Below are positions 2,807 to 39,635 of a stretch of 39,945 bases of DNA, in pieces; the first letter of the stretch is position 1, and each line of letters opens with the position of its first letter. The notes below the pieces were generated by a model. The model saw only the letters and a list, made by a program, of their open reading frames with translations, was not told where the DNA came from and made no database searches. The position numbers were made by a program, and so were the translations under genes. Location of the stretch: positions 1 to 39,945 of IMG/VR virus record IMGVR_UViG_3300047160_003852; one strand, written 5' to 3'. The stretch is from a virus.

Positions 2807-2816
2807 GAGCTTTCAC

Positions 2817-2963: not shown

Positions 2964-2972
2964 ATGGAGCCA

Positions 2973-3071: not shown

Positions 3072-3081
3072 GGAGGGACAA

Positions 3082-3306: not shown

Positions 3307-3321
3307 GGAAAGGAGCCGTTC

Positions 3322-3498: not shown

Positions 3499-3542
3499 GG
3501 AGCCAAATTTGCTGTGCAGCAAATATAGCGATTGGAGCAAAT

Positions 3543-3728: not shown

Positions 3729-3738
3729 CGAGGGTCCA

Positions 3739-3933
3739 TTGCAGCTTTACAAAGTGTCTGAGGACAACGGCGCAAGCGAGCCGTGGAACCTCGAAAACCT
3801 GTGGCAGTTTGACGTTCAACTTCTCTTGAACCAATGGCTGCTGGGTGTGGCCCGCTGGAAGGGTTACGGCGGCGTCGTGTGGACGCTGCACCTTGGGCCT
3901 GTCGTTTTCAATTACTACCGCAACCACAATTAG
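3739..3933 (+). CDS. hypothetical protein (about 64 aa; start uncertain: TTG 3739 or ATG 3700)
   Basis: GAGGG lies 5 nt upstream of TTG 3739. Sequence ...QLYKVSEDNGASEPWNLENLWQFDVQLLLNQWLLGVARWKGYGGVVWTLHLGPVVFNYYRNHN. Confidence 0.5.
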   Translation: MQLYKVSEDNGASEPWNLENLWQFDVQLLLNQWLLGVARWKGYGGVVWTLHLGPVVFNYYRNHN

Positions 3934-3946
3934 CGAGGGCTTAATC

Positions 3947-4225
3947 GTGAAAGTTATTCAACTCCAAACATCTGGCTTTGTAATTTTCCACGCTGGTAAG
4001 ACCGTGGATGAGGATTTCGCCACAGAGGAAGCCGCATGGGAGTGGGCAGATGCTAATATTGATGACCAGGTTACTGATGCCCCGAATTGGTTGTCAGACC
4101 AGATAAAATATCGCGAGCCTGATAATGCCGGTTGCCCAGTTTGTAATGGTGACTGCGCCGGCACAAGCGCGCCATTTATTGAGTGTCCCGATTGCGGCAA
4201 GCCGGACTGTCACACCAACCATTAG
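3947..4225 (+). CDS. hypothetical protein with C-terminal Cys cluster (92 aa, GTG start)
   Basis: GAGGG at 3935-3939 precedes GTG 3947. The C-terminal CPVCNGDCAG...CPDCGKPDCH is a zinc-binding-like motif. Confidence 0.6.
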   Translation: MKVIQLQTSGFVIFHAGKTVDEDFATEEAAWEWADANIDDQVTDAPNWLSDQIKYREPDNAGCPVCNGDCAGTSAPFIECPDCGKPDCHTNH

Positions 4226-4477
4226 ATTTTGAAGCAATCGAAATGCGTGGGCACGAACCCAGAGGGAAAAACCACAGTACGGTGCGCGACCGCCCAAAGG
4301 TTGAAAACGGGGTAGAGCCCGTTCCGAGCGGGAGAACGGTAAGTGCGAACGGAGACGGGTGCCTTGGCACGGTGCAAGACCGGCCCGCATCACAACATTA
4401 GGAATGGAACCCTAAATGGCCACAGGCGATCCAGTTCTTTACCCCCACCCTTAGCCCCAGATGGATTTGGAGGCGCT
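4226..4477 (+). other. 252-nt non-coding gap rich in short direct repeats and hairpins (candidate structured RNA, iteron region or regulatory leader)
   Basis: No plausible ORF. 17-nt imperfect direct repeat ACGGTGC-NN-GACCG(G)CCC at 4279-4295 and 4369-4386. Motif GA(A)ACGG occurs 4 times (4303-4359). Hairpins at 4307-4322, 4319-4339 (mutually exclusive) and GUGC[CUUG]GCAC at 4359-4370. Confidence 0.5.
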
Positions 4478-4753
4478 ATGTACGATCTTCGCACGATTTG
4501 GGATGAGGAATGGCGCAAGGAAGCCGTTCGCGCTCCAGGCCTGATTTGCTCTGATGAGCGCATCCAGCGTGTTGGCATTGCCGCGATGCTTCGCGCCCAA
4601 GAACTGGTGTGGGAGGAAATCAACGGCTCCTGCGGCTGCGTATTCTGCGATATTGGCCTTAAACCATTCAAGGCCGAAAAGCTGTTTTGGCACAAGGCTA
4701 ACGGGCGTGATCCCGTTCGCTGCACGCAGCCCCAGATGGATTTGGAGGAATGA
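4478..4753 (+). CDS. hypothetical protein (91 aa)
   Basis: GGAGG at 4469-4473 precedes ATG 4478. MYDLRTIWDEEWRKEAVRAPGLICSDERIQRVGIAAMLRAQELVWEEINGSCGCVFCD... Confidence 0.7.
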   Translation: MYDLRTIWDEEWRKEAVRAPGLICSDERIQRVGIAAMLRAQELVWEEINGSCGCVFCDIGLKPFKAEKLFWHKANGRDPVRCTQPQMDLEE

Positions 4754-4980
4754 TGAGCGGATCGTTGGTTTGGGAACCCGCCGAGAGGAAGAAGCGAAGC
4801 CTGCCCCGCGCACTTAAGTGGGCGCTGCAAAAGCGGTATGGCGGCGATCCGAATGTGGTCATGGGCGAAGGTCACAGAGACTATCTGCGCGGCCTCATTG
4901 ACGGCGGTGTTGAGGGCGCCCAAGAGCTTCTGGATGCTATCGACAAGCACGGCGACGTTCAACTGAGTGTCGAATATTAG
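4750..4980 (+). CDS. hypothetical protein (76 aa; start ATG 4750 or 4753)
   Basis: GGAGG at 4744-4748. Overlaps the upstream stop (ATGATG). Protein-like composition. Confidence 0.7.
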   Translation: MMSGSLVWEPAERKKRSLPRALKWALQKRYGGDPNVVMGEGHRDYLRGLIDGGVEGAQELLDAIDKHGDVQLSVEY

Positions 4981-5017
4981 CCCCAGACAGTTATGCGGGA
5001 TTAGAGAGGAGAGGATT

Positions 5018-5116
5018 ATGGACAAGCGACAGGCACAACTCGAATGTGAGATGCGCGGCGGTCCATGTGCTGAGGATCGGGATGCGCGCCGTATCGCTGT
5101 AAACATACCAAAATGA
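5018..5116 (+). CDS. possible 32-aa peptide
   Basis: GAGGAGAGG lies upstream of ATG 5018. MDKRQAQLECEMRGGPCAEDRDARRIAVNIPK. Very short, so weak support. Confidence 0.3.
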   Translation: MDKRQAQLECEMRGGPCAEDRDARRIAVNIPK

Positions 5117-5221
5117 CTATCAGATTGGTAGGTCCAAATGGTAGCCGCCATTAAACAAATGGCCCCACTCTTTCAAGCGGGGCCAAGTCTTCGGCTGCAT
5201 CTGGGGGATAGGAGAAATGCG

Positions 5222-5356
5222 ATGAGATACGCGAGAGAGCAACAGCGATATTCTCCAGAGTGGGCGGGCCGGGCTGAGCTTGTTCCATCCCTCCCGATGC
5301 GGGCCTGGCTGCCGAACTGGCTTGTTAATCTTTTGTTTGTCTTAATGCGTTTGTAA
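5222..5356 (+). CDS. possible 44-aa protein with hydrophobic C-terminus
   Basis: AGGAGA precedes ATG 5222. ...AWLPNWLVNLLFVLMRL. Weak support. Confidence 0.3.
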   Translation: MRYAREQQRYSPEWAGRAELVPSLPMRAWLPNWLVNLLFVLMRL

Positions 5357-5400
5357 CGAAACCGCGATGTCTTGGTTAATAGCTCATAAAGGCTTTCGAT

Positions 5401-7272
5401 ATGGCTGCTGGTGATCCTGTAATTGGCGATAGCCCCATCACTTCGGCGCCGAGCCCAGTAACAGATGATCCCAACTTTCTCGTTCTCAGCCGTTCCTACG
5501 GTACGGTCTGCCATCTTGGTCTGCTCAATCCGGCGCCACCTAATGACGGCGATCCAAATCTTGCCCAAAATCTTGGGCCATATAACTATAATGGCACTAG
5601 CGCGGCCTGTCACTGGTGGAATGCACGCTGGTGTAACCGCAATGGCCCGATCAGGATCAACAAATCTCCCCGCCAATTAGTCGATGCTCGCCGCATGTTT
5701 CCTTATGGCGCAAGCCCTGTTCCGATCCCCTCGCAGCCGCCGCGCATTCTTTATAACCAGCCAATGGCGACAAGCTGGCTCACGATCTACATGCCCACGA
5801 CGGGAGAACGCCCCGATATTGGGTTGACCACGGACGCCAGCGCGTATGCCATGTTAGGAGGCGATCCGGGCAGCATGATCGATGCGGCTTTATCGGCTGA
5901 AAGTTGCCCGTTTCATTTTCGGGATCAATCCACGGACCAGCCGATAGATCTGATCCAATATCCGGGCGCCAACGCCTACGATATTCCCGGCCGTCAGGGC
6001 GCACCTTGGCTATGCAAAGGGCCGCCATTCCCGAGCCAGGGCGGATACTCGATGTATGGTGGAGGCTGGCAACCCCAGCAGGCGCATTTGACGGAGATGA
6101 GCTATGTCGCCCATGAATTCACGGGCGATCTCGGCTTCCTCGAGGATCTGCAATACGCGGCGAACTTTGTCCTGATAGGCGATGCCACACTAAGCAGCGC
6201 CCATGGAAAACCTATTCCCTATGGCGAATACCGTGGCCTGGCATGGGCGGTGCGAACCCTATTCATGGCCCATATCGCCACCAGGGATGCCGAATCCGCC
6301 GGCATAGCAACTGGTCCTGGGACGCCCTACAAGCCGTCCAGCTATTTCAAGACTTTGCTGGACAATACCCTGGCTTATTACAGCCCGATCATGTCCGATC
6401 CGGCCCAACAGATCTTTCATACCTTCGTGCCAGCTGGAACCTTTGCCCCCTGGCAATGCGATTACATGCTGCTAGCCGTGGCTTTTGGCGTGCTGACCGG
6501 ACATTCAGACTGGCAGCCGTTCTTTCTATGGCTCTTGCAGAATGCCATTGATCGACTTATTGGCACGAACGGTTATCCTCCTGCTTGGGCCGCTTATTAT
6601 CTGGATGGCACGCAGCCAAGCTGGGCGGCAGCGTTCAATGCCTTGCAACAGAATCCGCAGGGCGGGACACCGCCGACACCCGAACAGAGGGCCGCCCTCG
6701 CTGCTGATCCATTTAATGGCGGCATTCCACTGGGCACCCCAGAATATCTCCAAACCACCAGCGCTGTTATCGCCGCTGCTCAACACATCGATAATCTTGG
6801 CATTTGTGCGATCCGCGCAGCATTTCCGAATCTCGATCAGTGCTTTGTGACTGTGAACACAATGATTAAGAATAGCAGCCAGGAAGCCCGTCACGCTATT
6901 ACATCCGATGTTTCTGTTGTCCCCACTTCAATCCGTCAACCCTCAGGAGGAACTTCCATGGATCTTGTTACCGGCTCAGTTCATACGATCAGCGTTACCA
7001 ATCTCAAGGATGCACAGGGCAATGCCGTCACCAACCTGCCTGCATCGATGGTTTACACTTACACGCCTTCCGATGCTTCGCTAGTCACAATGGGCGCTCA
7101 GAACGCCGATGGTAGCCAGCCTTTTACGGTCGGCGCGACGCTAGGCTCTCTGACATTTACCGGCACGCTTGTTTATCCGGACGGCAGTCATGTTACCCTG
7201 ACGCCCATCACCGTTAACATCGTCGCCGCGGCTGCGCCCAAAGCTGTGACCGGCGATCTTACCATCACTTGA
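5401..7272 (+). CDS. large hypothetical protein (623 aa) with C-terminal Ig-like beta domain; possible glycan-acting enzyme (speculative)
   Basis: Long ORF with protein-like composition. The Trp/Tyr/Pro-rich helical middle part is followed by a C-terminal ~110 aa (TISVTNLKDAQGNAVTNLPASMVYTYTPSDASLVTMGAQNADGSQPFTVGATLGSLTFTGTLVYPDGSHVTLTPITVNIV) typical of bacterial Ig-like domains. Confidence 0.7.
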   Translation: MAAGDPVIGDSPITSAPSPVTDDPNFLVLSRSYGTVCHLGLLNPAPPNDGDPNLAQNLGPYNYNGTSAACHWWNARWCNRNGPIRINKSPRQLVDARRMFPYGASPVPIPSQPPRILYNQPMATSWLTIYMPTTGERPDIGLTTDASAYAMLGGDPGSMIDAALSAESCPFHFRDQSTDQPIDLIQYPGANAYDIPGRQGAPWLCKGPPFPSQGGYSMYGGGWQPQQAHLTEMSYVAHEFTGDLGFLEDLQYAANFVLIGDATLSSAHGKPIPYGEYRGLAWAVRTLFMAHIATRDAESAGIATGPGTPYKPSSYFKTLLDNTLAYYSPIMSDPAQQIFHTFVPAGTFAPWQCDYMLLAVAFGVLTGHSDWQPFFLWLLQNAIDRLIGTNGYPPAWAAYYLDGTQPSWAAAFNALQQNPQGGTPPTPEQRAALAADPFNGGIPLGTPEYLQTTSAVIAAAQHIDNLGICAIRAAFPNLDQCFVTVNTMIKNSSQEARHAITSDVSVVPTSIRQPSGGTSMDLVTGSVHTISVTNLKDAQGNAVTNLPASMVYTYTPSDASLVTMGAQNADGSQPFTVGATLGSLTFTGTLVYPDGSHVTLTPITVNIVAAAAPKAVTGDLTIT

Positions 7273-7374
7273 TGGTATGAGGTACATCCGCATTGTCATA
7301 AACATAGTCTTCGGCAAAAAGCCGAAGAAGAAGAAAGCCGTATCTGGCGATCTGACAATTACGTAGAGGCTTCA

Positions 7375-7839
7375 ATGAAAGTCGCAGAAAGAATGCGTCG
7401 CCCCAAGGCGACCGGATTCCCATGTCCATCCTGCGGCAGTCCGGCGTGGTGTATCGATTCGCGGGTCTCGCCGGCCGGATGGAGACGACGGCGCGGCTGC
7501 AATAAATGCGGGTTGAGATTCTCGACCTATGAGGTTGCGGCCGATGCTGGGAAAGGGTTCATGGCCGAAATTACTGCGCTGCAAACGTCATTGCAGCGGG
7601 CAATCGGGGCCATGGAAGATATGGAGGCCGTCTTGGAATTGGTCAAGAAAGCCGAGAAGATCCAAGAGGACTACCGCAGCGTCTATAACGGCGATCTGGA
7701 CAAGGTCTTAAGGACGCCCCGCAGCAGCAGTCAAGGCGGTATCAGCCAGGGCAGTAGCAGCGGCATCGCTGACCTCTGCGGCTGCCAAGACACTATCGAT
7801 TGTGGCTTGGTCGGTCGCGGAGAGCCCGCCCCTGACTGA
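7375..7839 (+). CDS. NrdR-like zinc-ribbon protein lacking an ATP-cone, with a coiled-coil C-terminal part
   Basis: FPCPSCGSPAWCIDSRVSPAGWRRRRGCNKCGLRFSTYEV aligns by eye with the NrdR N-terminal ribbon (CPxCxxxxxxVxDSR...RRRRxCxxCxxRFTTxE). GAGG precedes the ATG. Confidence 0.65.
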   Translation: MKVAERMRRPKATGFPCPSCGSPAWCIDSRVSPAGWRRRRGCNKCGLRFSTYEVAADAGKGFMAEITALQTSLQRAIGAMEDMEAVLELVKKAEKIQEDYRSVYNGDLDKVLRTPRSSSQGGISQGSSSGIADLCGCQDTIDCGLVGRGEPAPD

Positions 7840-7920
7840 ATTATAGACCGATATGATCTCGGCAATGGCCTGGGGCGCCTGGGCCAGAAGCGAGAGAATT
7901 GCTGTCACGATTGCCGGCAT
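7708..7920 (-). CDS. hypothetical Ala-rich protein (70 aa), last gene of the - strand arm
   Basis: ATGA-type 1-nt overlap with the upstream gene (7920). Overlaps the convergent NrdR-like gene tail by 132 nt, so one of the two 3' ends is uncertain. Confidence 0.45.
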   Translation of the reverse strand: MPAIVTAILSLLAQAPQAIAEIISVYNSVRGGLSATDQATIDSVLAAAEVSDAAATALADTALTAAAGRP

Positions 7921-8294
7921 CAGTGCCCTCCCGCCAAAAGACCGTTAACCTGAGAAATCAGCGCAGAAGCGCCCGCGATCTTGGCGTTGATGCCAGGCGC
8001 GTCCCCCAGGGCCACAAGATTGTCGGCAGCCTTCAGAAGCGCCTCGGATTGGTCCAGATAGGCCTTGGCCTGTACGGCACATTGAGCCTTGCAGATGTTG
8101 GCATTCGCTGCCGCGGCCAGGCCATCTGCCGCCGCTTCATGGAGGCCGTGGGCGGCGATCAGGCCCTTTTTCGCGGCCGCCATAGCATCAGGTGCGGCCT
8201 GGGTGACGGTCCCAGTTACTGCCGTTCCCAATGGCCCACACGATGGCGTCGAGATCAAGATGGCCGCTGCTAGAACAAAAACCTGTAATTGCAC
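7920..8294 (-). CDS. secreted/lipoprotein-like Ala-rich protein (possible o-spanin-like lysis accessory)
   Basis: GAGGTG SD lies 4 nt before GTG 8294. N-terminal MQLQVFVLAAAILISTPSC is a signal-peptide-plus-Cys pattern. Positioned in the lysis cassette. Confidence 0.5.
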   Translation of the reverse strand: MQLQVFVLAAAILISTPSCGPLGTAVTGTVTQAAPDAMAAAKKGLIAAHGLHEAAADGLAAAANANICKAQCAVQAKAYLDQSEALLKAADNLVALGDAPGINAKIAGASALISQVNGLLAGGH

Positions 8295-8302
8295 GAATCA
8301 CC

Positions 8303-8551
8303 TCATTTAGGATGCGGGCAATCTTGTGTAACATATTGGGGCAACGGTTGGGAACTCTCCGCGCTCGCAACCGCGACTTGGGCGCGTTTATGTTCACAGT
8401 GGGCCTGGACCGTCAGAGCGTCCTTTTGGACCCAGAGATGTTCCACTTTGTAATAGCTGGTCGATGCCGCCCAGCCTATCCCGAATACAATGATATACCG
8501 GGCGCAGACCGCGATGGCTTCCTCGACCCGTTTATTTATCTGCGCCTCCAT
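8303..8551 (-). CDS. small membrane-anchored protein (possible i-spanin-like lysis accessory)
   Basis: One hydrophobic segment (ARYIIVFGIGWAASTSYY) near the N-terminus. Lies between the holin-like and lipoprotein-like genes. Confidence 0.45.
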   Translation of the reverse strand: MEAQINKRVEEAIAVCARYIIVFGIGWAASTSYYKVEHLWVQKDALTVQAHCEHKRAQVAVASAESSQPLPQYVTQDCPHPK

Positions 8552-8975
8552 CGACCGGGCCGCCCTCCTCTGGCGGGATGTTAAAGGCTGGGAACCTCAG
8601 CCCGGTAGCACGCGACACGATTCCCCCTAGCGTCGTGAATAACCATGGAATTCCGGTTGGTCCCACATATCCGAAGGCGATGAGCATAAAGACAAGGATG
8701 GTTTCGGACGGAACCGACATAAGCTTCATTGCAACCAATACGAGAACTGAGATCGTCGCTGCACTTATCATACTAGCCGCCAACAAGGCAAAAATGCGGC
8801 CCCACCGAATGCCTTGAGGCTTGTCGATTTCGGCGGCTATCTCAAAGCCAATTCTGGCCAAGGCTCCCAGCATGGTAAAACCCGTCGCCATGAATATGGT
8901 TTCAAGGGAGAGCCCGAAAGGCGTGAACGCTAACATGCTGGCGAGGCTCAGCCCCCCTTTGATTTCCGCATTCAT
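8532..8975 (-). CDS. multi-pass membrane protein, putative holin
   Basis: At least 4 hydrophobic helices (LSLASMLAFTPFGL, IFMATGFTMLGALARIGF, IFALLAASMISAATISVLVLVAM, ILVFMLIAFGYVG). ATGA overlap with the endolysin gene upstream. Confidence 0.6.
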   Translation of the reverse strand: MNAEIKGGLSLASMLAFTPFGLSLETIFMATGFTMLGALARIGFEIAAEIDKPQGIRWGRIFALLAASMISAATISVLVLVAMKLMSVPSETILVFMLIAFGYVGPTGIPWLFTTLGGIVSRATGLRFPAFNIPPEEGGPVDGGADK

Positions 8976-21512: not shown

Positions 21513-22493
21513 CTAGTTGCCGTTCAGGGTGCCCTGCAGGAAGCGATTCGAGGTCGTCATATTGCCGGCAAAACCGATCAATTTGACCATTGCGTCCTGA
21601 TTCACGGCATAGCGGTCATCGCCCAGAGGGACGAAATTCCTCGAGGCCGCGGGGCGGAAGAAAATATAGTTCGTGTTCAGCATGTACATAGTGTTCGTCG
21701 GACAACCGCCGCCAAACCCGCCGTCCAGAACCACATCGGCAGTCATGTATTTCAGGCTCTCGAAACCCGCCTGGGCCATTTCATCAGAAGCAATGCGCTG
21801 GATCGACTGCAGGCTTTCCATGTAAAGCCGGTAGTAATTATTGTCGGCCGGGATCAGGTCAACTTTGTCGTTGCCGCGCACCAGCTGGACCCAGAGCCGG
21901 TTCATGTAACTCAGGATATTGGCGGATGAGGCAGCCGCGCCGCCGTCCGTTACCGAGCGGTAGACCTTGTTCTGCCAGAAGGTATAGGTCGAAGCGTTGA
22001 TGCCGCCAACGGTGTTGGTATTGACCGCCGCAACCAGCGCCTGCAGACCTCCGATCTGGCGCCCGCCGTCTGCGGTGCCATCCGAGTAAATATCCACAGA
22101 AATGTTGTTCTGCATCGTGCGCTCGGCGTTCTTGATGCGTCCCGCCAAGAGCTTGATCGATGCCGCCTCGCCCGAGTTCTGGATCATCTCCAGACCGGAC
22201 ATGGAAACCGCTACCGCCGCCTGCGCATAATTATATTCGGCGTAAGTGAAGACGTCGGACGGTGAAATATCCAACTGCTCATAGCCGGAATAGCGCTTGT
22301 AGGTGCCGTTTTCGGCATACTCAAGTTCCTGCATGATGGTGCGGCCGCCATCGACCGTATCCACATTGCCTTTCTTGCGAAGGCGATTGAGCAGGGCGGT
22401 ATTTTTGGTGACGTTGTCCGCCGCTTTGCCGGTGCGCGACCGGAGCGTCGTGGCGACAATTTCGCCGGCGGTGACGGGGTTGTTCAAGGCCAT
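21513..22493 (-). CDS. major capsid protein (326 aa)
   Basis: Position directly after the scaffold-like gene, typical size, and the N-terminal pattern ...RSRTGKAADNVTKNTALLNRLRKKGNVDTVDGGRTIMQELEYAENGTYKRYSGYEQLD recalled from phage capsid families. The strongest-looking SD/spacing in the operon. Confidence 0.7.
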   Translation of the reverse strand: MALNNPVTAGEIVATTLRSRTGKAADNVTKNTALLNRLRKKGNVDTVDGGRTIMQELEYAENGTYKRYSGYEQLDISPSDVFTYAEYNYAQAAVAVSMSGLEMIQNSGEAASIKLLAGRIKNAERTMQNNISVDIYSDGTADGGRQIGGLQALVAAVNTNTVGGINASTYTFWQNKVYRSVTDGGAAASSANILSYMNRLWVQLVRGNDKVDLIPADNNYYRLYMESLQSIQRIASDEMAQAGFESLKYMTADVVLDGGFGGGCPTNTMYMLNTNYIFFRPAASRNFVPLGDDRYAVNQDAMVKLIGFAGNMTTSNRFLQGTLNGN

Positions 22494-22514
22494 CGGTCTA
22501 GTCCCTCTCTAGGG

Positions 22515-23609
22515 CTAGACGCGGCCTCGTATCTCAGCCAGCGCAGCCCGGATGTCGTCTTCGATGCTGCCGTGGGAGCCCGCACCATTTAGGGGCCTTG
22601 AAGACCCCGGGGCGCCGGTAACAGATACGGCAGCGTTCCTTGCTCTTTCGGTTTGAGCCCTTAGCTCCGAATTCCGCTTTTCCTGCGCTGCGTTGGACTG
22701 AGCAGCGATCAGACTGTTGCGGATTTCCGGGTCAGCCCAGATGGCCTTTTCGTAAGCCTCGTTGATGTCCTGGGCCTGCCCGCTTTCGAGAAGGACGCCC
22801 ATATGATAGCGAACCTTGTCGAAGTGCTCATGGCCAGGCTGAGACGAGAAGCTGTCGATATGGGCCAGAATGCCCTGGTCTTCCTGATTCCGAAGGTGAT
22901 TTTCCAGGCCCTGCAATCGCTCGTTCAAACCCCTGGTTTGCTGCTCATATTGAGCGTACCGCGGGTCTGAAGCGCCTTGCTGGTGGGCTAAGGACAAATC
23001 TACATTAAACTGTTGTGCTATGGCGTGCAAGGCCATTGATTTCTGAGCCGGCGTGCCCGTCCTGAGGACATATGCGGTCTGTAAGTAGTTCTCGTACGCC
23101 TTGTGAGGATCGGCACCCTCCGCTCGCATCATGGGAAGATAGGGAGTTGATGCCTCCATGACCTTACGCCCCAAATCCCGGGCCTCGTCATGGGCGAAAA
23201 GCTGTTTTGTCAGGGCTTCTTCGCGGCGCGTGGCTTCCTTTTGCGCCCATTCGGGCAGTTCACCCCATTTGGCCTTGGCTTCTCCGGTCCAGCCTTTTGG
23301 TGGATCGATGGCCGGGGCTGAAGCCGCTGCAGGTGTTTCAGCAGTAGTTTGTCCGATTTGCGCACCAGCTTTTACCCCTGCATCTTTCTCCGGGAGCGTT
23401 AGGGTCTCACGTTGCGGCTTGGCGTTCTTGGCGTTTTCTTCCGCTGATTTGGCAAAGCGGCCGGTTTCGTCGCGAGGCCGTTCCGGTCTGTCTAGGACAA
23501 TCTGAGGTTCGGGATCACCTTCCCCGCCCATAAGTTCATTTAAGGCGTTCTGGACATCGCCTGCAATGTCATCGACTTCGGCTTCTGGCGCGTCGCCTTC
23601 ATGGCTCAT
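22515..23609 (-). CDS. scaffolding protein (364 aa)
   Basis: Acidic N-terminus, long helical/charged Ala/Glu/Gln-rich sequence, located immediately upstream of the capsid gene. Confidence 0.65.
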   Translation of the reverse strand: MSHEGDAPEAEVDDIAGDVQNALNELMGGEGDPEPQIVLDRPERPRDETGRFAKSAEENAKNAKPQRETLTLPEKDAGVKAGAQIGQTTAETPAAASAPAIDPPKGWTGEAKAKWGELPEWAQKEATRREEALTKQLFAHDEARDLGRKVMEASTPYLPMMRAEGADPHKAYENYLQTAYVLRTGTPAQKSMALHAIAQQFNVDLSLAHQQGASDPRYAQYEQQTRGLNERLQGLENHLRNQEDQGILAHIDSFSSQPGHEHFDKVRYHMGVLLESGQAQDINEAYEKAIWADPEIRNSLIAAQSNAAQEKRNSELRAQTERARNAAVSVTGAPGSSRPLNGAGSHGSIEDDIRAALAEIRGRV

Positions 23610-32675: not shown

Positions 32676-34156
32676 CAGATGCGTTCCTCTTGCCGCTTCC
32701 GTGGCTTGAATAACTCGTGCGCCGTCATCTCGTGCAGGAATCTCGGCTGCATCTCAGACCTGGGTTTCGGCCGCACATAGGGCCGCGACATGCAGGCATA
32801 ACGCCATTCGTCGGCGGCGTGGTCTTCGCTATCGGTATTCACATCCTCGACGCGGTTTTCGTCATGCTGCAGAAGCGGAATGGTGCGGATACTGTCCAGG
32901 CAATTGGAGAAGCAATAAATCATGGGCCTGCCGTTTTCCCCCATCATGCGGGACCGCATCTGATCCCATCCCCCCATGGCGCCCTTTGCGGCCACCCTGG
33001 CATTATCAGCCCTGCGGAAGGCAAGCTTGTGCGAGACAAACATGCGCTCCGCAATCGACGGGCCGCCATCTGAGGCAAACGCCGCCGGATCAAGCACACG
33101 ATAGTTTATAAGTTCCCCAGATTCCAGATGTAAAATCCGGCTGGCCACTTCCTCAGCCGGCAGCTTCAGCCCCGTATTTGGCAGGCTGTGAGCATCTGCG
33201 CAGCCATAGTATTCGCGGTAACGGACCAATGCGCCCTTGGGGATGACGAACGAATCGGGCGTCTCATAGTCATCCCCGGCGACCGCCCACCAGCCGAATG
33301 AGAACGGCCTGGCCGATCCCCAGTCGCCAGACATGAACTTCGTCCACCAATCTGGAAGCTGGCACGGCCTTAAGATCATGGCGCCGGACCAGCAATTGAA
33401 GAACGCGCCGGCTATGATGTTCCAATCGCCCTCGAGCCACGCCTTTCGCAGTGCATCATTGCCGTGTGTAGCGGCTAGAATCCGGGTCCGGTAGTCCGGG
33501 TCGTGTCTTAAGAGAATGGCATTGTCCACCAGACGAGAGGGGATGAACATTCGGGTAAAGCCGGATTCGGGGTCGAGATAGGGCTTTCGCGGTGCAACCG
33601 GGTCAATGTACCGTGTTTTAACCCACGCATGTCCAACACCTCCGGGATTGCCGGTGAGACGGACGCTACATGGAACACCAGTCGCGGATCGAAGTGTTGA
33701 AAGCATTCGTAGCAACCCGGAGGGCGTGGGGTATTCCGTGACCTCATCGAAGGAAATGCCAGTATATTGGTGTCCGTGGTATCGCCCATAGTCTTTCTCG
33801 TTCTCGATGTAGCGCATCTTAACACTAGCGCCGTTTGGCCAATACCAACAGTTCGAGAACGGATAGTCCACCGATTGCTGGGTTTTGAAGATGGCGCCCG
33901 TGTTTGGGAATATCTCCATGGCCCTGGACTGGAGCTCCTCTAATTCAGGGTAGGTCTTGCGGAACATGATTCCACGCCAGCCGTTCTTGTGCCGGATTGC
34001 GCCATCTTCCTGATAGCCAAGCTGGAAGTCTGATTTGCCACCTCCACGTTCGCCGCCATAGAACAGTTCATCAACCCAATCGGCCTCGATGGCGTCGCGT
34101 TGGGGGCCGGGCTGCGGGAACCATTGCCTCAGTCTGGTGAGTGGAGCGTCAACCAT
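32675..34156 (-). CDS. terL: terminase large subunit
   Basis: Walker A-like GGERGGGKS, Walker B-like GISFDEVTEY, nuclease-half acidic motifs (DWGSARPFS..., DSEDHAADEWRY). Synteny with TerS and portal. Confidence 0.9.
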   Translation of the reverse strand: MVDAPLTRLRQWFPQPGPQRDAIEADWVDELFYGGERGGGKSDFQLGYQEDGAIRHKNGWRGIMFRKTYPELEELQSRAMEIFPNTGAIFKTQQSVDYPFSNCWYWPNGASVKMRYIENEKDYGRYHGHQYTGISFDEVTEYPTPSGLLRMLSTLRSATGVPCSVRLTGNPGGVGHAWVKTRYIDPVAPRKPYLDPESGFTRMFIPSRLVDNAILLRHDPDYRTRILAATHGNDALRKAWLEGDWNIIAGAFFNCWSGAMILRPCQLPDWWTKFMSGDWGSARPFSFGWWAVAGDDYETPDSFVIPKGALVRYREYYGCADAHSLPNTGLKLPAEEVASRILHLESGELINYRVLDPAAFASDGGPSIAERMFVSHKLAFRRADNARVAAKGAMGGWDQMRSRMMGENGRPMIYCFSNCLDSIRTIPLLQHDENRVEDVNTDSEDHAADEWRYACMSRPYVRPKPRSEMQPRFLHEMTAHELFKPRKRQEERI

Positions 34157-34434
34157 TGTTCGCGGGTGAGGGTTGGGCGTTCCACCACTTCGAGCGGTTG
34201 TAGATCAGGCGCTTGGCCGAGACCAATAGACTGGGACGGCTTGCCATGGCCGCGATCCAGCAGGCTGTTGATAGCCGCCACTCTGGCCTGTTCGCTCTCA
34301 GCCTCTTTAGCGAGCCGTGCAAGCTCTTTTATCGCCATAGGGGTATGGATACGGCATAAGTCCTGAAGCTCCTGTGTGGCTTTGTTTTTTATGCCCTTGG
34401 GGCGACCTTGGCCGGATGTGGATGATTTTGCCAT
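34129..34434 (-). CDS. terminase small subunit candidate (101 aa from ATG 34434; alternative TTG 34464)
   Basis: Immediately upstream of and overlapping terL. N-terminal basic GRPKGIKNK motif followed by helical segments. Confidence 0.55.
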   Translation of the reverse strand: MAKSSTSGQGRPKGIKNKATQELQDLCRIHTPMAIKELARLAKEAESEQARVAAINSLLDRGHGKPSQSIGLGQAPDLQPLEVVERPTLTREQWLTLHSPD

Positions 34435-34442
34435 TGGGCCGC

Positions 34443-34471
34443 AATTAGCCGCATTTTGCCGCAAACGTCAA
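34443..34471 (-). promoter_or_regulatory. sigma70-like promoter candidate for the packaging/structural operon (possibly giving a leaderless or near-leaderless TerS mRNA)
   Basis: On the - strand: TTGACG (34471-34466), 17 nt, CTAATT (34448-34443), 8 nt, ATG 34434. There is no SD before this ATG. Confidence 0.3.
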
Positions 34472-34480
34472 TTTACACGA

Positions 34481-34496
34481 TGTTTCACGTGAAACA
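34481..34496. promoter_or_regulatory. perfect 16-bp palindrome TGTTTCACGTGAAACA
   Basis: Lies in the 65-nt intergenic gap, 4 nt after the methyltransferase-fusion stop and 10 nt upstream of the putative -35. Confidence 0.6.
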
Positions 34497-34499
34497 ATC

Positions 34500-36341: not shown

Positions 36342-36536
36342 TCAATCCCCCATTTCCACAACCATGGTATTGCCGATGAAATGCGTTTTCGGACCGGATA
36401 AAGTTACTTCCGGCAGAGAGTTCTCAAGGATAAGTGCCCGCAGCGCAACAGATTTTTGCCTGAATTCCTGCGATTCGGCAGCCTCAATCATATCATCGAA
36501 TAACGCGCGGATCTGGGCCAAATCGTTTCGCGGCAT
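36342..36536 (-). CDS. hypothetical protein (64 aa)
   Basis: ORF directly downstream of the terminator at 36573-36599. No SD. A TTATGT hexamer lies 7 nt upstream of the ATG. Confidence 0.5.
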   Translation of the reverse strand: MPRNDLAQIRALFDDMIEAAESQEFRQKSVALRALILENSLPEVTLSGPKTHFIGNTMVVEMGD

Positions 36537-36572
36537 GTGAAAAACATAACGCGGTTAATGATTTGTTTCCAT

Positions 36573-36599
36573 AAAAAAAGCGCCGACGGGTGCCGGCGC
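36573..36599 (-). terminator. rho-independent terminator (- strand)
   Basis: On the - strand, GCGCCGGCACCCGTCGGCGC (6-bp GC stem plus an extra pair) is followed by TTTTTTT. Lies just downstream of the small membrane ORFs. Confidence 0.6.
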
Positions 36600-36625
36600 A
36601 GTCGAAGACGTGTTGAGCAATTAAC

Positions 36626-36814
36626 CTATAGCACGATATGCCCGCCAGGCTCCAGCCCCAGCAGCACGTGGATAAGCCAGATCACCGCAATCACGACGAT
36701 CAAGATTTGCACAATCAATGCGAACGGAGGTGGAAGCGGAATAAGTGTGATAACCTAATAAATTAAGCCCAGAACCAGAGCTAAAATCAGAACACTGATC
36801 AGGATCGATAACAT
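36626..36814 (-). pseudogene. two-TM small membrane protein frame (19 aa + 42 aa) interrupted by one in-frame TAG
   Basis: GGGAGG lies 5 nt before ATG 36814. MLSILISVLILALVLGLIY-TAG(36755-36757)-VITLIPLPPPFALIVQILIVVIAVIWLIHVLLGLEPGGHIVL-TAG, all in the same frame. The second part has no upstream start of its own. Confidence 0.45.
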
Positions 36815-36839
36815 TGATTCCTCCCTGTTCTAGCGGGGA

Positions 36840-37481
36840 GATAACTCCAGTCGCCGCTTCGCGGCGTAGAAGATTCTTTCTATCGCCTCGCTTCGCTTCG
36901 CTTGCGCCTTATGGGCGCTCGCTCGCGAGGCGACTGACAGACCTTTAAAGGCTTATCGTTTGAGTTCAGATCGGTTGTGACCAGGCATAGGAAGACATAC
37001 CCCGCTTTTGGCGTGGTATGTTCCTAGCCTGGGGCCATCGTTTTGAGACGAGTCGGCGCTTACAGGCGATCCGGTCGGGAAGTTCCGCCGCACCTTGGCT
37101 GCTACTGTTTGTGGATAACTTCATCCACCCCGGTCTTGCGGCCCCAGCCTTTCGGACCACCGCTGCACATATGCCGGACCCCCGCGTAGTGCCTGCCAGC
37201 GCCCCACCCACGGGAATTACAACCCAATGGGGAACCGTCAAGCCGATGCGGGATTGATAAGGGAGCCGCAGGTTGGTATATACCGCTGACGGCCTACCCC
37301 GATGCAGCCACATCGGTTTGAACGCCTCCGATTCATCGTCGGGGGCGTTCGCGCATCAAGCGCCCAGGTATTGCAACTGTCAAGTCTCAGGATTAGGTTT
37401 GCGGGGCAATGCCAACCCCATTGCTGTTCCTTCGGACCCAGCGACAGCCCCGGCAGCCCCAAGCGTCGGGGCTGTTCCTTT
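36840..37481. other. ~640-nt ORF-free, GC-rich, hairpin-dense region (candidate large structured RNA and/or replication origin)
   Basis: All six frames give only Arg/Ser/Pro/Gly-rich shadow ORFs. Stable hairpins at 36852-36866, 36883-36933, 36995-37021, 37111-37128, 37265-37293, 37299-37316, 37321-37348, 37406-37424 and 37454-37474. Long-range 8-bp complementarity 37029-37036/37140-37147. TTCGGACC repeated at 37151 and 37431. Confidence 0.6.
37110..37128. promoter_or_regulatory. perfect DnaA-box 9-mer (TTATCCACA, - strand) inside a 6-bp-stem palindrome that carries a second, 7/9 box on the + strand
   Basis: + strand tGTGGATAACTTCATCCACc. The reverse complement of 37110-37118 is TTATCCACA. 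37121-37129 TCATCCACC matches 7/9. Confidence 0.4.
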
Positions 37482-37482
37482 T
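37454..37482 (+). terminator. terminator-like hairpin on the + strand (CAGCCCC-N7-GGGGCTG followed by TTCCTTTT)
   Basis: 7-bp GC-rich stem with a T-rich tail on the + strand only. Lies exactly at the 3' end of the - strand gcrA-like gene, so it may instead be an mRNA-stabilising or bidirectional element. Confidence 0.35.
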
Positions 37483-37934
37483 CAGAAGTATTGGCGGTCG
37501 TTCTTGCGCCCCCTGAATTGCTGCGGCTGCGTCCGGACATAGGCGATTGCCTGGTGAAACTCGCAATAAGGCCCGTGCATAACCGCCGGATGGCCACAAC
37601 ATTGGATTTCCAGGCCTTCACCATGGGGCCAGCGGCATAAGCCGAGCTTCGGAAAATCCCCCACAGGACCGCACGGCACGGGTTCCTCGGGCTTGTGGCT
37701 CGAGGGCATGGGCTTTGGCGCAGCTGGGGCGTGGGGATGACGCGGCAACCTCAGGCGCGGTTCCTGGCGCTTCTTGAGCTTCATCCGGGATACGAGCCCC
37801 AACACAGCCGATCTCGTGACGATAACGCCAAGTTGTGACTTTAGTTGGCTGGCCACTATCGACGCGCTGCAGCCTGAATCCCATGCTTCCCGGACCAGGG
37901 CCTTGATCTCGTCGTTATGGTGTTGGCCCGACAT
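37482..37934 (-). CDS. gcrA: GcrA-family cell-cycle regulator homologue (150 aa from ATG 37934)
   Basis: N-terminal W..E.IKALVREAWDSGCSASIVASQLKSQLGVIVTRSAVLGLVSRMKL and C-terminal CRWPHGEGLEIQCCGHPAVMHGPYCEFHQAIAY match the GcrA pattern (SASQIAxxLG..SRNAVIGKxHRL ... CxWPxG...FCG....PYCxxHxxxAY). GGGAGG lies 6 nt before ATG 37934. Confidence 0.85.
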   Translation of the reverse strand: MSGQHHNDEIKALVREAWDSGCSASIVASQLKSQLGVIVTRSAVLGLVSRMKLKKRQEPRLRLPRHPHAPAAPKPMPSSHKPEEPVPCGPVGDFPKLGLCRWPHGEGLEIQCCGHPAVMHGPYCEFHQAIAYVRTQPQQFRGRKNDRQYF

Positions 37935-38776: not shown

Positions 38777-38998
38777 ATGGCCCAGTTCTCTTGGAAAAAC
38801 GCCCCGGACCTGATGGACCGGCTTTCATCGACCCAGAACGCCCCCTGCAATTGCGTCATCGACATTATGACATTTGCGGGCTTCTGCACTTCACGCGAAC
38901 AGCTTGAGACACATGTTTCCCGCTACGAAGCGCGCGAAGCTGCGGCCATCCATGCCGCCGCCTACAAGCGTGCCGGCCGGAGGTCCGCCAATGTCTAA
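38777..38998 (+). CDS. hypothetical protein (73 aa), first gene of the + strand arm
   Basis: Strong SD. MAQFSWKNAPDLMDRLSSTQNAPCNCVIDIMTFAGFCTSREQLETHVSRYEAREAAAIHAAAYKRAG. Confidence 0.65.
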   Translation: MAQFSWKNAPDLMDRLSSTQNAPCNCVIDIMTFAGFCTSREQLETHVSRYEAREAAAIHAAAYKRAGRRSANV

Positions 38999-39278
38999 CG
39001 TGAGCCCCTTCCTCGACCAGCCATTGCGCTCCGAATCCGAAGCAAGACACGACCGCCATCTATCCATGATGGAAGTGATCCGCAGGGCTGCGAAGGCGGA
39101 AGCCCAGCCTCAATACAAGCCGTGTCCTTGGTGCGGAACCGACGCGCCGCTTCCAACACGAGAAGTTGGCATGCTCGTCTACACAATCAGGTGTGGCAAT
39201 GAGGATTGCTACGCACAGCCGTCAGTATATGGCGCGACTATAGAGCAGGCTTGGAGCCGCTGGAACTCCCGCGCATGA
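38991..39278 (+). CDS. Lar-family restriction-alleviation-like protein (95 aa)
   Basis: GGAGG lies 7 nt before ATG 38991. KPCPWCGTDAPLPTREVGMLVYTIRCGNEDCYAQPSVYGATIEQAWSRWNSRA fits the Lar-type pattern (CPFCG ... C..C ... A..xWNxR at the C-terminus). Confidence 0.55.
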   Translation: MSNVSPFLDQPLRSESEARHDRHLSMMEVIRRAAKAEAQPQYKPCPWCGTDAPLPTREVGMLVYTIRCGNEDCYAQPSVYGATIEQAWSRWNSRA

Positions 39279-39323
39279 AATTCAGCCGGCGCCTCGCGGT
39301 TCTTCTGGGGCAGGGAAAATAAA

Positions 39324-39635
39324 ATGGTATCGCATCCTTCACGCGAATCAAATGGCAAAGAGCTTTATGTCGTCGTTACGACTGCACATCGCGGCGTGTT
39401 TGGCGGCTATGCAACCGAGACAAACAGCAAGACAATCAATTTGCGGCTTGTCCGCAATTGTCTCTACTGGCCTTCGAATGTCGGCGGCTTTGTCGGGCTC
39501 GCAACATCTGGTCCGAATAGCCAAACCAAGATTGGCCCCGCCGTCGAAACTATGACGTTGCATGACGTGACGGCAGTTCTCAAATGCTCGCCCGATGCCG
39601 AGAAGGCTTGGGTTAGCGCGAACTGGAAGTTCTAG
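39324..39635 (+). CDS. hypothetical conserved-looking phage protein (103 aa)
   Basis: …ELYVVVTTAHRGVFGGYATETNSKTINLRLVRNCLYWPSNVGGFVGLATSGPN… has protein-like composition. Its stop lies 2 nt before the next ATG. Confidence 0.6.
   Translation: MVSHPSRESNGKELYVVVTTAHRGVFGGYATETNSKTINLRLVRNCLYWPSNVGGFVGLATSGPNSQTKIGPAVETMTLHDVTAVLKCSPDAEKAWVSANWKF

Follow-up and report, generated by a model that had tools for sequence, protein, structure and literature searches.

A stretch of about 515 nt, running from ~37350 to ~36840 on the minus strand of the window (the whole 39,945-nt stretch of viral DNA analysed here), is best read from its sequence as belonging to an RNA family without earlier description, whose members are 520–580 nt long in related phages. 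The sequence evidence makes it probable that the region functions as a structured RNA; the fuller proposal, of an autonomous large non-coding RNA gene with both strand and autonomy as given here, is one we favour on balance and with less assurance. The large structured RNA put forward in a preliminary description of this DNA is supported by ORF-free homologues, by a fixed promoter–hairpin geometry and by at least six helices at corresponding positions that carry two-sided substitutions.

An ORF-free gap of ~640 nt had been described in this arm of the genome. The absence of ORFs is borne out, and the gap is slightly longer, 667 nt (36815–37481). Each of the six frames contains 5–8 stops of at least two kinds, and stop-codon reassignment was rejected as an explanation, since no single reassignment opens any frame and TAG terminates 8 of the 26 genes of this phage. 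Neither Pfam nor PHROG matches any of the long ORFs that can be drawn mechanically in the gap (115 aa for the minus strand, 79–112 aa for the plus), and these show no protein conservation in relatives, where tblastn picks up only fragments, split between frames, that echo the first ~215 nt conserved as DNA; gene callers predict no gene in the homologous elements of the lineages L001, L003 and L172. The remainder of the arm is gap-free, as had been claimed, an apparent gap at 34157–34499 being filled by a small-terminase-like ORF.

Upstream of the element lies a gcrA-like gene, whose ATG at 37934 has GGAGG just 5′ to it, and the next minus-strand ORF below the gap, for a small membrane protein, begins at 36814. 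The counterpart of this ORF in L001 is a single intact 62-aa gene with TGG at the position of the in-frame TAG codon. The terminator at 36599–36570 is the first downstream of the element on its strand, its stem is identical in L001 (with T6 instead of T7), and beyond it ~28 kb of minus-strand genes extend down to 8532. The phage genome is ~40 kb and apparently complete, and many of its proteins are unannotated, so that an initiator may be unrecognised among them. Because a GcrA-like gene is present and GANTC sites are depleted, the phage probably infects Alphaproteobacteria. Four GANTC sites lie in the gap; a GcrA/CcrM link through such sites was considered and rejected, as their positions vary among lineages and none is near the L003 promoter.

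The nine local hairpins reported earlier all fold where they had been placed (−4 to −29 kcal/mol), the 8-bp long-range complement between 37029–37036 and 37140–37147 has no mismatch and can be lengthened to 11 nt at 91%, and the duplicated TTCGGACC was found at 37151 and 37431, with a third copy outside the region at 36388. The region is GC-rich, as had been said (58–60% GC throughout, above the genome mean), and the (TCGCT)x3 repeat is present, one base away from its reported position, at 36888–36902. Against 100 dinucleotide shuffles, the MFE of the whole region has a z-score of −4.2 on the minus strand and −5.4 on the plus strand; 76 windows of 520 nt tiled over the genome have a mean z of −0.15 (sd 1.32), and just one of them, which is coding, falls below the region, placing the region second among 77 in folding energy. 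Single hairpins are unexceptional at this GC content, the best 36-nt hairpin being equalled in 49 of 100 shuffles, and so the structural signal lies in the ensemble and, above all, in conservation. Across the four lineages that carry the element, z is −4.18, −4.19, −3.63 and −3.49 on the sense strand; on the antisense strand it is −5.40 in the window, −4.61 in L001, −3.70 in L172 and −1.81 in L003. The ~95 nt directly after gcrA (37386–37481, with the hairpins 37406–37424 and 37454–37474) is outside the conserved RNA core and upstream of the putative promoter of the element. The hairpin pair within it (37406–37480) is terminator-like on the plus strand only; in L001 the corresponding two hairpins are predicted to be antisense-strand terminators, and no counterpart was found in L003 or L172.

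Homologous ORF-free elements of 520–580 nt are present in three further uncultured phage lineages (L001, L003/L004 and L172), giving a sample of four lineages and five loci, and covariation statistics are weak at four sequences. Each element lies just downstream of a gcrA-like gene; the gcrA homologues P0002, P0005 and P0007 are 40–160 nt (L001, L172) or ~0.6 kb (L003) upstream of it, and the GcrA-like protein is 75% identical to that of the window in L001 and 40% identical in L003. The four share a common anatomy, comprising the promoter-like site, collinear helices P1, P2, P3, P5, P7, P8 and P9, which vary in sequence but retain pairing by compensatory substitution, and conserved unpaired motifs. 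Compared with the window, the L001 gap is conserved at both ends and diverged in the middle. L003 and L001 are alignable across the whole element (local score 36.5, null maximum 16.5), and the window and L003 share a 5′ block (32.5) and a 3′ block (27.5) with weaker collinear islands between them; L172, the fourth lineage, has all modules. Indels between homologues are of 1, 2 and 4 nt. The downstream neighbours differ, being the membrane ORF and terminator in the window and L001, a small terminase gene in L003 and a convergent HNH gene in L172. The 62-codon membrane ORF was not found downstream of the element in L003 or L172, and the short L172 contig has no terminase gene in view.

When 0.9 Mb of related phage DNA is searched with a covariance model of P1–P2, all five known copies score E ≤ 2.5e-14 and the next match E = 0.21. 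Absence of the region from related phages, which the preliminary description had named as evidence against its proposal, applies to some of them: four lineages keep the element, at least eight other loci fetched through gcrA are without a copy, and most of the gcrA-carrying phages examined lack it. The covariance model R1 found no match in L090, L091, L149/L150, L164–L171 or L175, some of these contigs being short. The gap of L090, considered as a homologue, holds an uncalled GIY-YIG ORF instead, and the ORF-poor 650 nt of L150 were set aside as not significantly structured (z = −1.5). BLAST, regex and covariance-model searches detected no element in 80 IMG/VR phages with a related large terminase (≤76% identity). 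Searched by BLAST, GenBank phages gave no real match to the element of the window, L003 or L172, PLSDB (72,556 plasmids) showed no similarity to the window element, and exact scans of IMG/VR with three short motifs gave no further copy. The exact P1–P2 motif matched JGI metagenome contigs 57 times, all by chance, the window's own contig and that of L003 not being returned, and the 13 exact matches of the P9 motif in GTDB genomes were likewise all due to chance. Two other candidates were dropped: a small conserved ORF beginning ‘MTA...’ in L001 and L003 is absent from the window and differs in length, and a cos/pac site would have no conserved position, the element lying ~2.4 kb upstream of the terminase genes in the window and adjacent to them in L003.

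Table 1. Coordinates of the element, its helices and its neighbours in the window
Feature	Position	Strand	Description
gcrA-like gene	37482–37934	−	150 aa; PF07750, E = 2e-15; upstream neighbour, outside the element
Two hairpins, 37406–37424 and 37454–37474	37406–37480	+	GCTGTTCCTT after each; from a repeat and inverted-repeat scan and folds
Promoter-like site	37355–37384	−	−35 CTTGAC (37384–37379), 18-nt spacer, −10 CTTGAT (37360–37355)
P1	37320–37350	−	5′-terminal two-part hairpin, 7 bp + 4 bp; conserved C/A mismatch, GAA in loop
P2	37299–37316	−	Hairpin CCGAUG-N6-CAUCGG, UGG in loop
P3	37264–37294	−	Variable hairpin with AU-rich tip, then C-rich, G-poor linker 37243–37263
P5 domain	37154–37225	−	Long irregular hairpin closed by GGGUU/GGUCC, three G–U pairs on this strand
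GUGGAU-N6-AUCCAC hairpin	37111–37128	−	In poorly conserved middle segment; pair probability >0.7
P7	36981–37032	−	Long hairpin, 21 bp in the window, 10–13 bp in relatives
P7b and P8	P7b 36936–36957, P8 36882–36934	−	From folds and similarity to relatives
Core 3′ end	36840–36881	−	GAAUCUUCUAC, then P9 hairpin CGCCGC-GAA-GCGGCG (36852–36866)
62-codon two-helix membrane-protein ORF	36626–36814	−	Directly downstream; in-frame TAG at 36755–36757 (plus coordinates)
Intrinsic terminator	36570–36599	−	8-bp GC stem + T7

At the 5′ end of the element, the outer stem of P1 has two-sided changes at 5 of its 7 pairs across lineages, and its covariation score of 0.363 compares with 0.182 ± 0.054 in shuffles (0 of 500 reach 0.363) and with a maximum of 0.186 in slid registers; the covariation of P1–P2 likewise lies above every shuffle and every slid register. 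The P2 stem is identical in three lineages and remodelled yet paired in L172. A P3 hairpin is found at matching positions in the window, L003 and L172 and is weak in L001, and the linker that follows it is alike in all four lineages (CCCUUAUCAAUCCC / CCCCCAAAAGCAACAC / CCCCAUCCAACAC / CCCCAACAACCC). A conserved CAUWGGG motif precedes the P5 domain, in which pairing of P5a and P5b reaches 88.9%, slid registers giving no more than 52.8%, with three two-sided changes, in a plain MAFFT alignment (A7) that was not fitted to structure. The P5 covariation score was matched by 36 of 500 shuffles, the statistics of four sequences being weak, and the P5c tip covaries (GUGG/CCAC, GCGG/CCGC, GCACAA/UUGUGC). 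The expanded inner part of P5 in the window is tentatively regarded as homologous to that of the relatives.

In its middle ~250 nt the window copy has diverged so strongly that homology is positional only, and the relatives show no clear counterpart of the hairpin at 37111–37128. P7 has a position common to all four lineages and differs in sequence among them; at 6 of the 11 positions of its core, at least one sequence departs from the commonest pair on both sides. Its G–U pairs on the minus strand (three in L001, one in L003 and one in L172) account for a sense fold that is better by 4–6 kcal/mol, and it is a top-four local hairpin in every lineage. The P7b/P8 3′ block aligns with L003 at a local score of 27.5 (null maximum 15.5), is also significant against L172, and folds at −20 to −30 kcal/mol in all four lineages. 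P8 consists of a 10-bp outer stem around the hairpin GCGCC-CAUAA-GGCGC and an (AGCGA)x3 purine run, and by its own ranking is a top-three local hairpin in every lineage; taken together, P1, P7 and P8 are the three most stable local hairpins in L001, L003 and L172 and rank 1, 2 and 4 in the window. P9 is identical in L001 and reads CCGC-GAA-GCGG in L003 and CUCCUC...GAGGAG in L172; it is no intrinsic terminator, since a U-tract is absent after the hairpin. In a hand-aligned table, which is biased by construction, two-sided changes occur at 32 of 50 pairs, and the consensus fold of a plain three-lineage alignment (without L172) is poor, at −63 kcal/mol with an unfavourable covariation term. Realignment with the covariance models R1 and R2 was acceptable for P1–P2; P7 kept one-column register errors and was therefore scored by hand.

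The promoter-like site is separated from the P1 hairpin by 4 nt in all four lineages, with the geometry CTTGAC-18-CTTGAT-4 in the window and L001, CTTGCT-18-CTAGAT-4 in L003 and CTTGCG-18-TCAAAT-4 in L172. A scan for E. coli-type consensus promoters did not detect the site at 37384–37355, which resembles the alphaproteobacterial promoter consensus, CTTGAC-N17-CTATAT; as a pattern match, the minus-strand promoter before P1 is putative. None of the four lineages has a terminator or other defined 3′ end following P9, an unusual state for an RNA gene that stands alone.

The earlier statement that the region matches no known RNA family agrees with Rfam scans of the window and its relatives, which returned no family. 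Rfam cmscan of the whole window gave zero matches at the gathering threshold, and at E ≤ 10 the region 36400–37700 gave just four unrelated sRNA models. Sub-threshold matches to osmY, F6, asX2, ncS025 and ctRNA_pGA1 (E 0.1–7, window and relatives) were dismissed as hairpin noise. The ROOL and GOLLD models matched neither the window nor the relatives, even at E ≤ 10; no group I/II intron, riboswitch, RNase P, tmRNA, SRP or 6S model matched in Rfam, HK022 put was not matched in these scans, and ARAGORN found no tRNA and no tmRNA in the whole window. The element has the features by which large ornate RNAs are recognised, being ORF-free, longer than 400 nt and rich in covariation-supported helices, the last drawn from four lineages only. 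A type I toxin–antitoxin locus (hok/sok-like) was rejected, as only the window and L001 pair the element with the membrane ORF and the candidate promoters on the antisense strand are directed away from the ribosome-binding site.

In the autonomous RNA gene that we favour, host RNA polymerase would start at ~37350 and the RNA would begin with the P1 hairpin; a 5′-terminal hairpin is a known stabiliser against 5′-end-dependent decay. The RNA would fold to a multi-domain particle, the product being RNA and not protein. Transcription would continue unstopped until 36599–36570, making the element the first ~515 nt of a ~780-nt transcript that in this phage would also carry the 62-codon membrane ORF. 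The element itself would be a self-contained RNA that either binds protein, as a scaffold or decoy, or assembles with itself into a particle like other large ornate phage-borne RNAs, and it would not act via whichever gene follows; autonomy is favoured because the element is complete beside each of three different downstream neighbours, of which one is convergent. Any specific molecular partner of the RNA would be a doubtful assignment.

The minus strand is tentatively taken as the transcribed strand. It is favoured by the fixed promoter-to-P1 spacing, which sits on this strand, by the G–U pairs of P7, P5a and P8, which become A–C mismatches on the plus strand, and by L003, which folds significantly in the sense orientation only (−3.63 vs −1.81); it is disfavoured by P1, which is 3–6 kcal/mol better on the plus strand in three lineages, as its conserved C/A mismatch turns into G–U there. 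The opposite assignment, in which the functional transcript is a plus-strand (antisense) RNA or both strands are transcribed, is improbable. Transcription would then begin close to what is here called the 3′ end of the element, cross it and end at the tandem hairpin–T-tract sites 37406–37480 beside the gcrA stop, consistent with plus-strand z-scores that equal or fall below those of the minus strand in the window, L001 and L172, with P1 as a perfect 13–14-bp plus-strand helix in three lineages, with the two terminator-like plus-strand sites in the window and L001, and with sigma-70-like sites at the 3′ end of the element (TTGTCT-16-TAAAAT in L003; TTGTCG-17-TAAATT, by eye, in L001). However, the window lacks this promoter owing to a 21-nt deletion relative to L001, the terminators are missing in L003 and L172, and P7, P5a and P8 lose 4–8 kcal/mol or three pairs on the plus strand, to which the modest antisense score of L003 and the promoter-to-P1 geometry of the minus strand are added. 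The main rival to an autonomous RNA gene, though an unlikely one, is a cis-acting late-operon leader, in which a promoter and long structured 5′ leader run into packaging and head genes and the nascent RNA, perhaps P1–P2, acts on the polymerase or the mRNA; it could make the late genes conditional by HK022 put-like processive antitermination or as a lambda PR′–6S–tR′ type of gate. In the window, L001 and L003 the element does lie where early genes give way to late ones, in the orientation of the genes downstream and not separated from them by a terminator, and the L003 small terminase start codon is ~55 nt past P9. Two stem-loops lie immediately past the start site, a strong intrinsic terminator ~250 nt downstream and ahead of ~28 kb of minus-strand genes (window, L001) gives a classic antitermination layout, and the order of regulator gene, promoter, leader, terminator and late genes parallels lambda Q-PR′-tR′. 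Yet the L172 element faces three convergent genes head-on and so has no co-transcribed operon to regulate, the downstream gene varies among lineages, and neither L003 nor L172 has a downstream terminator to overcome; moreover, 520–580 nt is several-fold above any known antitermination RNA, and in L001 a promoter-like site after the terminator suggests that the late operon may own a promoter.

The region had also been proposed as an origin, and this part of the preliminary description did not hold up, as there are no iterons or repeated boxes, no AT-rich unwinding block, no skew turning point and no plasmid similarity. A primer-RNA origin (like ColE1 RNA II, or using an R-loop as T4 oriF/oriG do), where a persistent RNA hybrid primes DNA synthesis, is very improbable. 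It would explain an RNA II-like form, in resemblance only (a promoter, ~550 nt, no ORF, 5′ stem-loops, no terminator), a mildly purine-rich 3′ 60–90 nt (0.62–0.67) and the possible antisense promoters, and a PHROGs scan of ten other window proteins (nine from the plus arm, one from the minus) found no initiator, helicase, primase or polymerase. Against it, the repeats are two-copy chance repeats, with no iterons or DnaA-box-like repeats among them and no AT-rich segment; the cumulative GC-skew extremes fall at 5432 and 25077, with no GC or AT inflection at 36.8–37.4 kb; Rfam RNAI/ctRNA models gave nothing above noise (a single L003 match to ctRNA_pGA1, E = 1); and none of the 72,556 plasmids is similar. 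Slighter still is the prospect of a non-functional spacer, a decayed-gene remnant or hypervariable insertion site with the chance hairpins of GC-rich DNA, where selection would act on the flanking promoter and 3′ motifs alone. The middle of the window diverges from L001 far more than the flanking genes do, individual hairpins are no stronger than those of shuffles, the naive-alignment consensus fold is weak and one coding genome window shows a still lower z, all of which a spacer would accommodate; it would not account for 520–580 nt kept ORF-free in four lineages, when phages rarely retain 500 nt of useless DNA, for the end-to-end alignment of L001 with L003 despite GcrA-like proteins 75% and 40% identical to the window's, or for P1, P5, P7 and P8 at homologous positions with different sequences and two-sided substitutions. 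A protein gene hidden by a frameshift or a reassigned stop is effectively refuted: the mechanical 115-aa ORF (36966–37313, minus strand) and the in-frame TAG of the neighbouring ORF are set against at least two kinds of stop in every frame, the use of TAG as a stop in 8 of 26 genes, the lack of Pfam or PHROG matches and of any callable gene in L001, L003 and L172, and homologues that lack protein-level conservation and differ by indels that are not multiples of three.

Very few bacterial or phage RNAs longer than 500 nt are known (ribosomal RNAs, group II introns, OLE, GOLLD and ROOL), and each is biochemically unusual. The candidate is compact and well delimited, with a predicted start, seven named helices and four natural variants for comparison; it belongs to a ~40-kb genome and sits where early transcription passes to the late genes. 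If real, it would offer a tractable system for what large phage RNAs do and would place such RNAs in phages probably of Alphaproteobacteria, where none has been described. A more speculative proposal, to which we attach a low probability, is a new class of large phage RNA active at the early-to-late switch, either as a polymerase-reprogramming device or as a self-assembling particle. The former would be an RNA-only device, several-fold larger than put, that reprograms host RNA polymerase during its own transcription; the latter would be a ROOL/GOLLD-like particle in alphaproteobacterial phages, genetically tied to a GcrA-like sigma-70 cofactor. Were this proposal true, a decision in the phage life cycle would be made by a folded RNA the size of a gene in place of a protein regulator.

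Among known systems, ColE1 RNA II is likewise ~550 nt, promoter-driven, highly structured, non-coding and terminator-less with possible antisense transcription, but the element has no plasmid similarity or Rfam RNAI match, and its antisense promoter candidates are at the far 3′ end and not ~110 nt from the 5′ end. HK022 put is a cis-acting RNA that makes RNA polymerase terminator-resistant. Like put, the element has two stem-loops at the start of its transcript, P1 beginning in every one of the four lineages 4 nt past the hexamer that resembles a −10 box, and in the window and L001 it heads to a terminator and a long operon; unlike put, which is ~70 nt, it is 520–580 nt with at least six more conserved helices, and the L172 copy has no downstream operon. 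Should it prove to be a leader acting in cis, no RNA element known to gate the late operon of a phage would come near it in size. The late region of lambda comprises the Q gene, the PR′ promoter, 6S RNA, the tR′ terminator and the late genes, and the same succession of transcription-factor gene, host-type promoter, untranslated leader, terminator and ~28 kb of late genes is seen here, also at the early/late junction. The lambda leader, however, is 194 nt with no conserved folded RNA, and the regulator here is GcrA-like, not Q-like, with the 62-codon ORF between leader and terminator. Phages and prophages carry ROOL and GOLLD, two large ‘ornate’ RNAs (Weinberg et al. 2017, PMC5737381) found as oligomers by cryo-EM (Kretsch et al. 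2025, PMC12286853). The element matches neither Rfam model even at E ≤ 10, has no tRNA genes nearby, whereas GOLLD often adjoins them, and has inferred hosts among Alphaproteobacteria, as against Firmicutes or rumen and lake taxa; it is known here from sequence, in four lineages, with no terminator-defined 3′ end. It shares with both that it is phage-borne and ORF-free, with many helices in ~500–800 nt.

From 38647 down to 8532 every gene of the window is encoded on the minus strand, and positions 36815-37481 form the sole real gap in this arm, since what looks like a 343-nt gap ahead of the gene for the large terminase contains a small-terminase-like ORF (34129-34464, minus strand, starting MAKSSTSGQGRPKG). 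This ORF probably encodes the small terminase subunit; the L001 gene at the corresponding place, matched by position only, matches phrog_15261 and, weakly, a small-terminase family. The window is an entire metagenomic contig of 39,945 bp. Both contig ends (1-80 and 39866-39945) lie inside one GGCTAC/GGCGAC hexamer-repeat tract and have a 32-nt identical terminal repeat in common, so the window probably represents a whole circular phage genome whose assembly broke within a repetitive gene. Translated, the tract would give Gly-Tyr-type repeats.

GANTC, the CcrM methylation site that is read by GcrA, is strongly depleted across the whole window (102 sites versus 164 ± 11 expected), which fits an alphaproteobacterial host with CcrM. 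The small membrane ORF downstream of the gap carries an in-frame TAG at codon 20 (36755-36757; TGG in the L001 homolog), beyond which the frame is still open and conserved. The TAG may stem from a recent nonsense mutation or a sequencing error, or may be read through; genome-wide reassignment is unlikely because 8 of 26 genes end in TAG.

Every frame of the gap holds 5-8 stop codons of mixed kinds, bearing out the preliminary description of an ORF-free, hairpin-dense island, whose nine hairpins, 8-bp long-range complement and repeats are all present with one-base corrections. Hairpin density alone is not convincing, as the window's best 36-nt hairpin is equalled in stability by 49 of 100 shuffles. 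The 513-nt core of the element (the folded stretch from ~37350 down to ~36840) has a minimum free energy (MFE) z-score of -4.18 on the minus strand and -5.40 on the plus strand, compared with a mean of -0.15 (sd 1.32) over 76 tiled 520-nt genome windows, one of which is lower than the element. Coding DNA at 22361-22880 (minus strand) scores -4.9, below the element, and 7281-7800 scores -3.6, both values being noisy with 14 shuffles each.

Neither the window nor its relatives match any Rfam 15 family at gathering thresholds, permissive thresholds return noise only, and no tRNA or tmRNA genes were found. Similar sequence is absent among 50,697 GenBank phage records and 72,556 plasmids, and no copy of the element was found in any of 80 phages whose terminase is related or at eight further loci carrying gcrA; scanning IMG/VR, JGI metagenomes and GTDB genomes for its motifs yielded no further copy. 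In L090, a further gcrA phage, the 520-nt 'gap' at 2110-2631 was rejected as a homolog, as it seems to hold an endonuclease ORF of GIY-YIG type (GLYVFTS...LYVGQSVNIARRWKGHE) that gene calling missed.

With the GcrA-like protein as query, protein searches turned up contigs of uncultured phages that have a homologous ORF-free stretch, which together with the window make four lineages (L002 is a fragment of L001, and L004 is the same as L003). The local alignment of L001 with L003 spans the whole element and scores 36.5, against 16.5 for the best of 50 shuffles; between the window and L003 the 5' and 3' blocks score 32.5 and 27.5, with weaker islands at the same offsets between them. As judged from alignment scores that exceed those of shuffles, the homology is real and not shared composition. 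The homologs differ by many 1-, 2- and 4-nt indels, which excludes a coding reading. L003 also encodes a second, 78-aa protein directly after its GcrA-like gene (8456-8692), with a weak match to PF07750, the GcrA N-terminal domain (E = 0.0013), and an Acb2/Tad1-like hairpin protein (PF24729).

Features of the minus-strand arm, of the element (parts in 5' to 3' order, as found in the four lineages) and of the homologous loci
Feature	Position	Strand	Description
Cro-like HTH gene	from 38647	-	first in minus-strand order
Several small genes		-	between Cro-like HTH and GcrA-like genes
GcrA-like gene	37934-37482	-	PF07750
Gap	36815-37481		667 nt, between GcrA-like gene and membrane ORF
Promoter-like site			CTTGNN-18 nt-CTTGAT/CTAGAT/TCAAAT; first part of element
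Same, window	-35 37384-37379; -10 37360-37355	-
P1			two-part hairpin; C/A mismatch, GAA in loop
P2			CCGAUG-N6-CAUCGG; UGG in loop
P3			variable hairpin
Linker			C-rich, G-poor
CAUWGGG motif			opens long P5 hairpin domain
Poorly conserved segment	S positions 202-322		~120 nt, between P5 and P7
P7			long hairpin
P8			hairpin domain with GCGCC-AUAA-GGCGC and purine-rich strand
GAAUCUUCUAC			between P8 and P9
P9			small hairpin
Membrane ORF	36814-36626	-	62 codons
Intrinsic terminator	36599-36570	-	3' of membrane ORF
Small genes, methyltransferase		-	3' of terminator, before terminase genes
Small and large terminase, portal and further genes	down to 8532	-	further genes structural by position only
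L001	1828-2509		ORF-free between called genes; GcrA-like 75% identical to window; then intact 62-aa membrane gene and same terminator
L003	9067-9676		ORF-free, after GcrA and two genes; GcrA-like 40% identical to window; then small terminase gene (phrog_309, E = 6e-50)
L172	2950-3555		ORF-free; GcrA-like 33% identical to window; then three convergent genes, first HNH

The promoter-like site, which resembles the housekeeping consensus of Alphaproteobacteria (CTTGAC-N17-CTATAT), ends exactly 4 nt short of P1 in all four lineages, none of which has a terminator after P9. A ~35-nt motif, GCGA.G..GACAG.AA.GGATTTT..GCTAGG, is found 3' of P9 in L003 (9613-9651), L172 (~3520-3560) and L001 (~2455-2480) and is lost from the window. 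It also stands alone in the element-free gcrA phages L167 (4110-4150) and L169 (3617-3652), 3' of an unrelated 232-245-aa gene, and could represent an independent late promoter or a site for protein binding.

Comparison of the lineages supports the earlier proposal of a large structured RNA through homologs and pair-preserving changes. Realigned to a covariance model, P1-P2 show two-sided change in 7 of 17 pairs and a covariation score of 0.363, reached by none of 500 shuffles (0.182 ± 0.054) and compared with at most 0.186 in slid registers. For P5a/P5b, scored on a MAFFT alignment fitted to no structure, 88.9% of cells are paired versus no more than 52.8% in slid registers, and three changes are two-sided; the four-sequence covariation score is still reached by 36 of 500 shuffles. 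P7 forms 10-21 bp per lineage from differing sequences, one position showing all four Watson-Crick pair types (UA, GC, CG, AU). A hand alignment of 50 pairs, biased because its helices were hand-picked, has two-sided change in 32 and pairing in 193 of 199 cells. Ranking of local hairpins is an unbiased pointer to selected folding: P1, P7 and P8 are the three most stable 36-nt windows in L001, L003 and L172, and rank 1, 2 and 4 in the window. Sense-strand z-scores in the four lineages, too few for formal significance of these folding statistics, are -4.18, -4.19, -3.63 and -3.49; the RNAalifold consensus was weak on a naive alignment of three lineages made before L172 was found.

Transcription of the minus, operon-sense strand is favoured by the conserved promoter geometry on that strand, by G-U pairs that become A-C mismatches on the plus strand (found in P7 of three lineages, in P5a, where the window has three, and in P8), and by L003, which folds significantly in the minus sense only (z -3.63 versus -1.81). 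That the plus strand is the transcribed one is improbable, although in three lineages P1 forms a better helix there, in three the plus-strand z-score matches or undercuts the minus-strand one, and the window and L001 carry two hairpin-plus-T-tract sites for that strand right after gcrA; sigma-70-like sites oriented for plus-strand transcription stand at the far end of the element in L003 and L001, but the window lost its own by a 21-nt deletion. Both strands may be transcribed. The two hairpins of the window (37406-37480) lie between the stop codon of gcrA and the promoter of the element, each followed by the same GCTGTTCCTT and terminator-like on the plus strand only; the pair is conserved in L001, absent in L003 and L172, and hints that an antisense transcript crosses the element.

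The element retains all its parts beside three kinds of downstream neighbour, one of which is convergent, and this suggests a self-contained module whose product would be the RNA itself. The chief alternative is a late leader acting in cis: the element makes up the 5' part of a transcript entering the next genes in the window, L001 and L003, and in two of these, the window and L001, ~28 kb of minus-strand genes follow behind a strong terminator, a layout that recalls lambda Q-PR'-tR' and HK022 put. The three convergent genes downstream in L172, and the element's size, speak against a leader. As for the suggestion that the island is an origin, repeats, composition, skew and plasmid similarity gave no positive evidence, and likeness to a ColE1-like primer RNA would be resemblance only. 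On the plus-strand arm (669-8273, 38874-39635), PHROGs and Pfam recognised no replication initiator, helicase, primase or polymerase; matches are limited to NinB and two HNH endonucleases (PHROGs) and a Lar-like protein (Pfam and PHROGs), and neither the 274-aa nor the 623-aa protein of this arm matches a PHROG.

The element is a candidate for a new family of large phage RNA, rare and seen in four lineages only. Although a member of neither family, it resembles in kind the large ornate phage RNAs ROOL and GOLLD (PMC5737381, PMC12286853).
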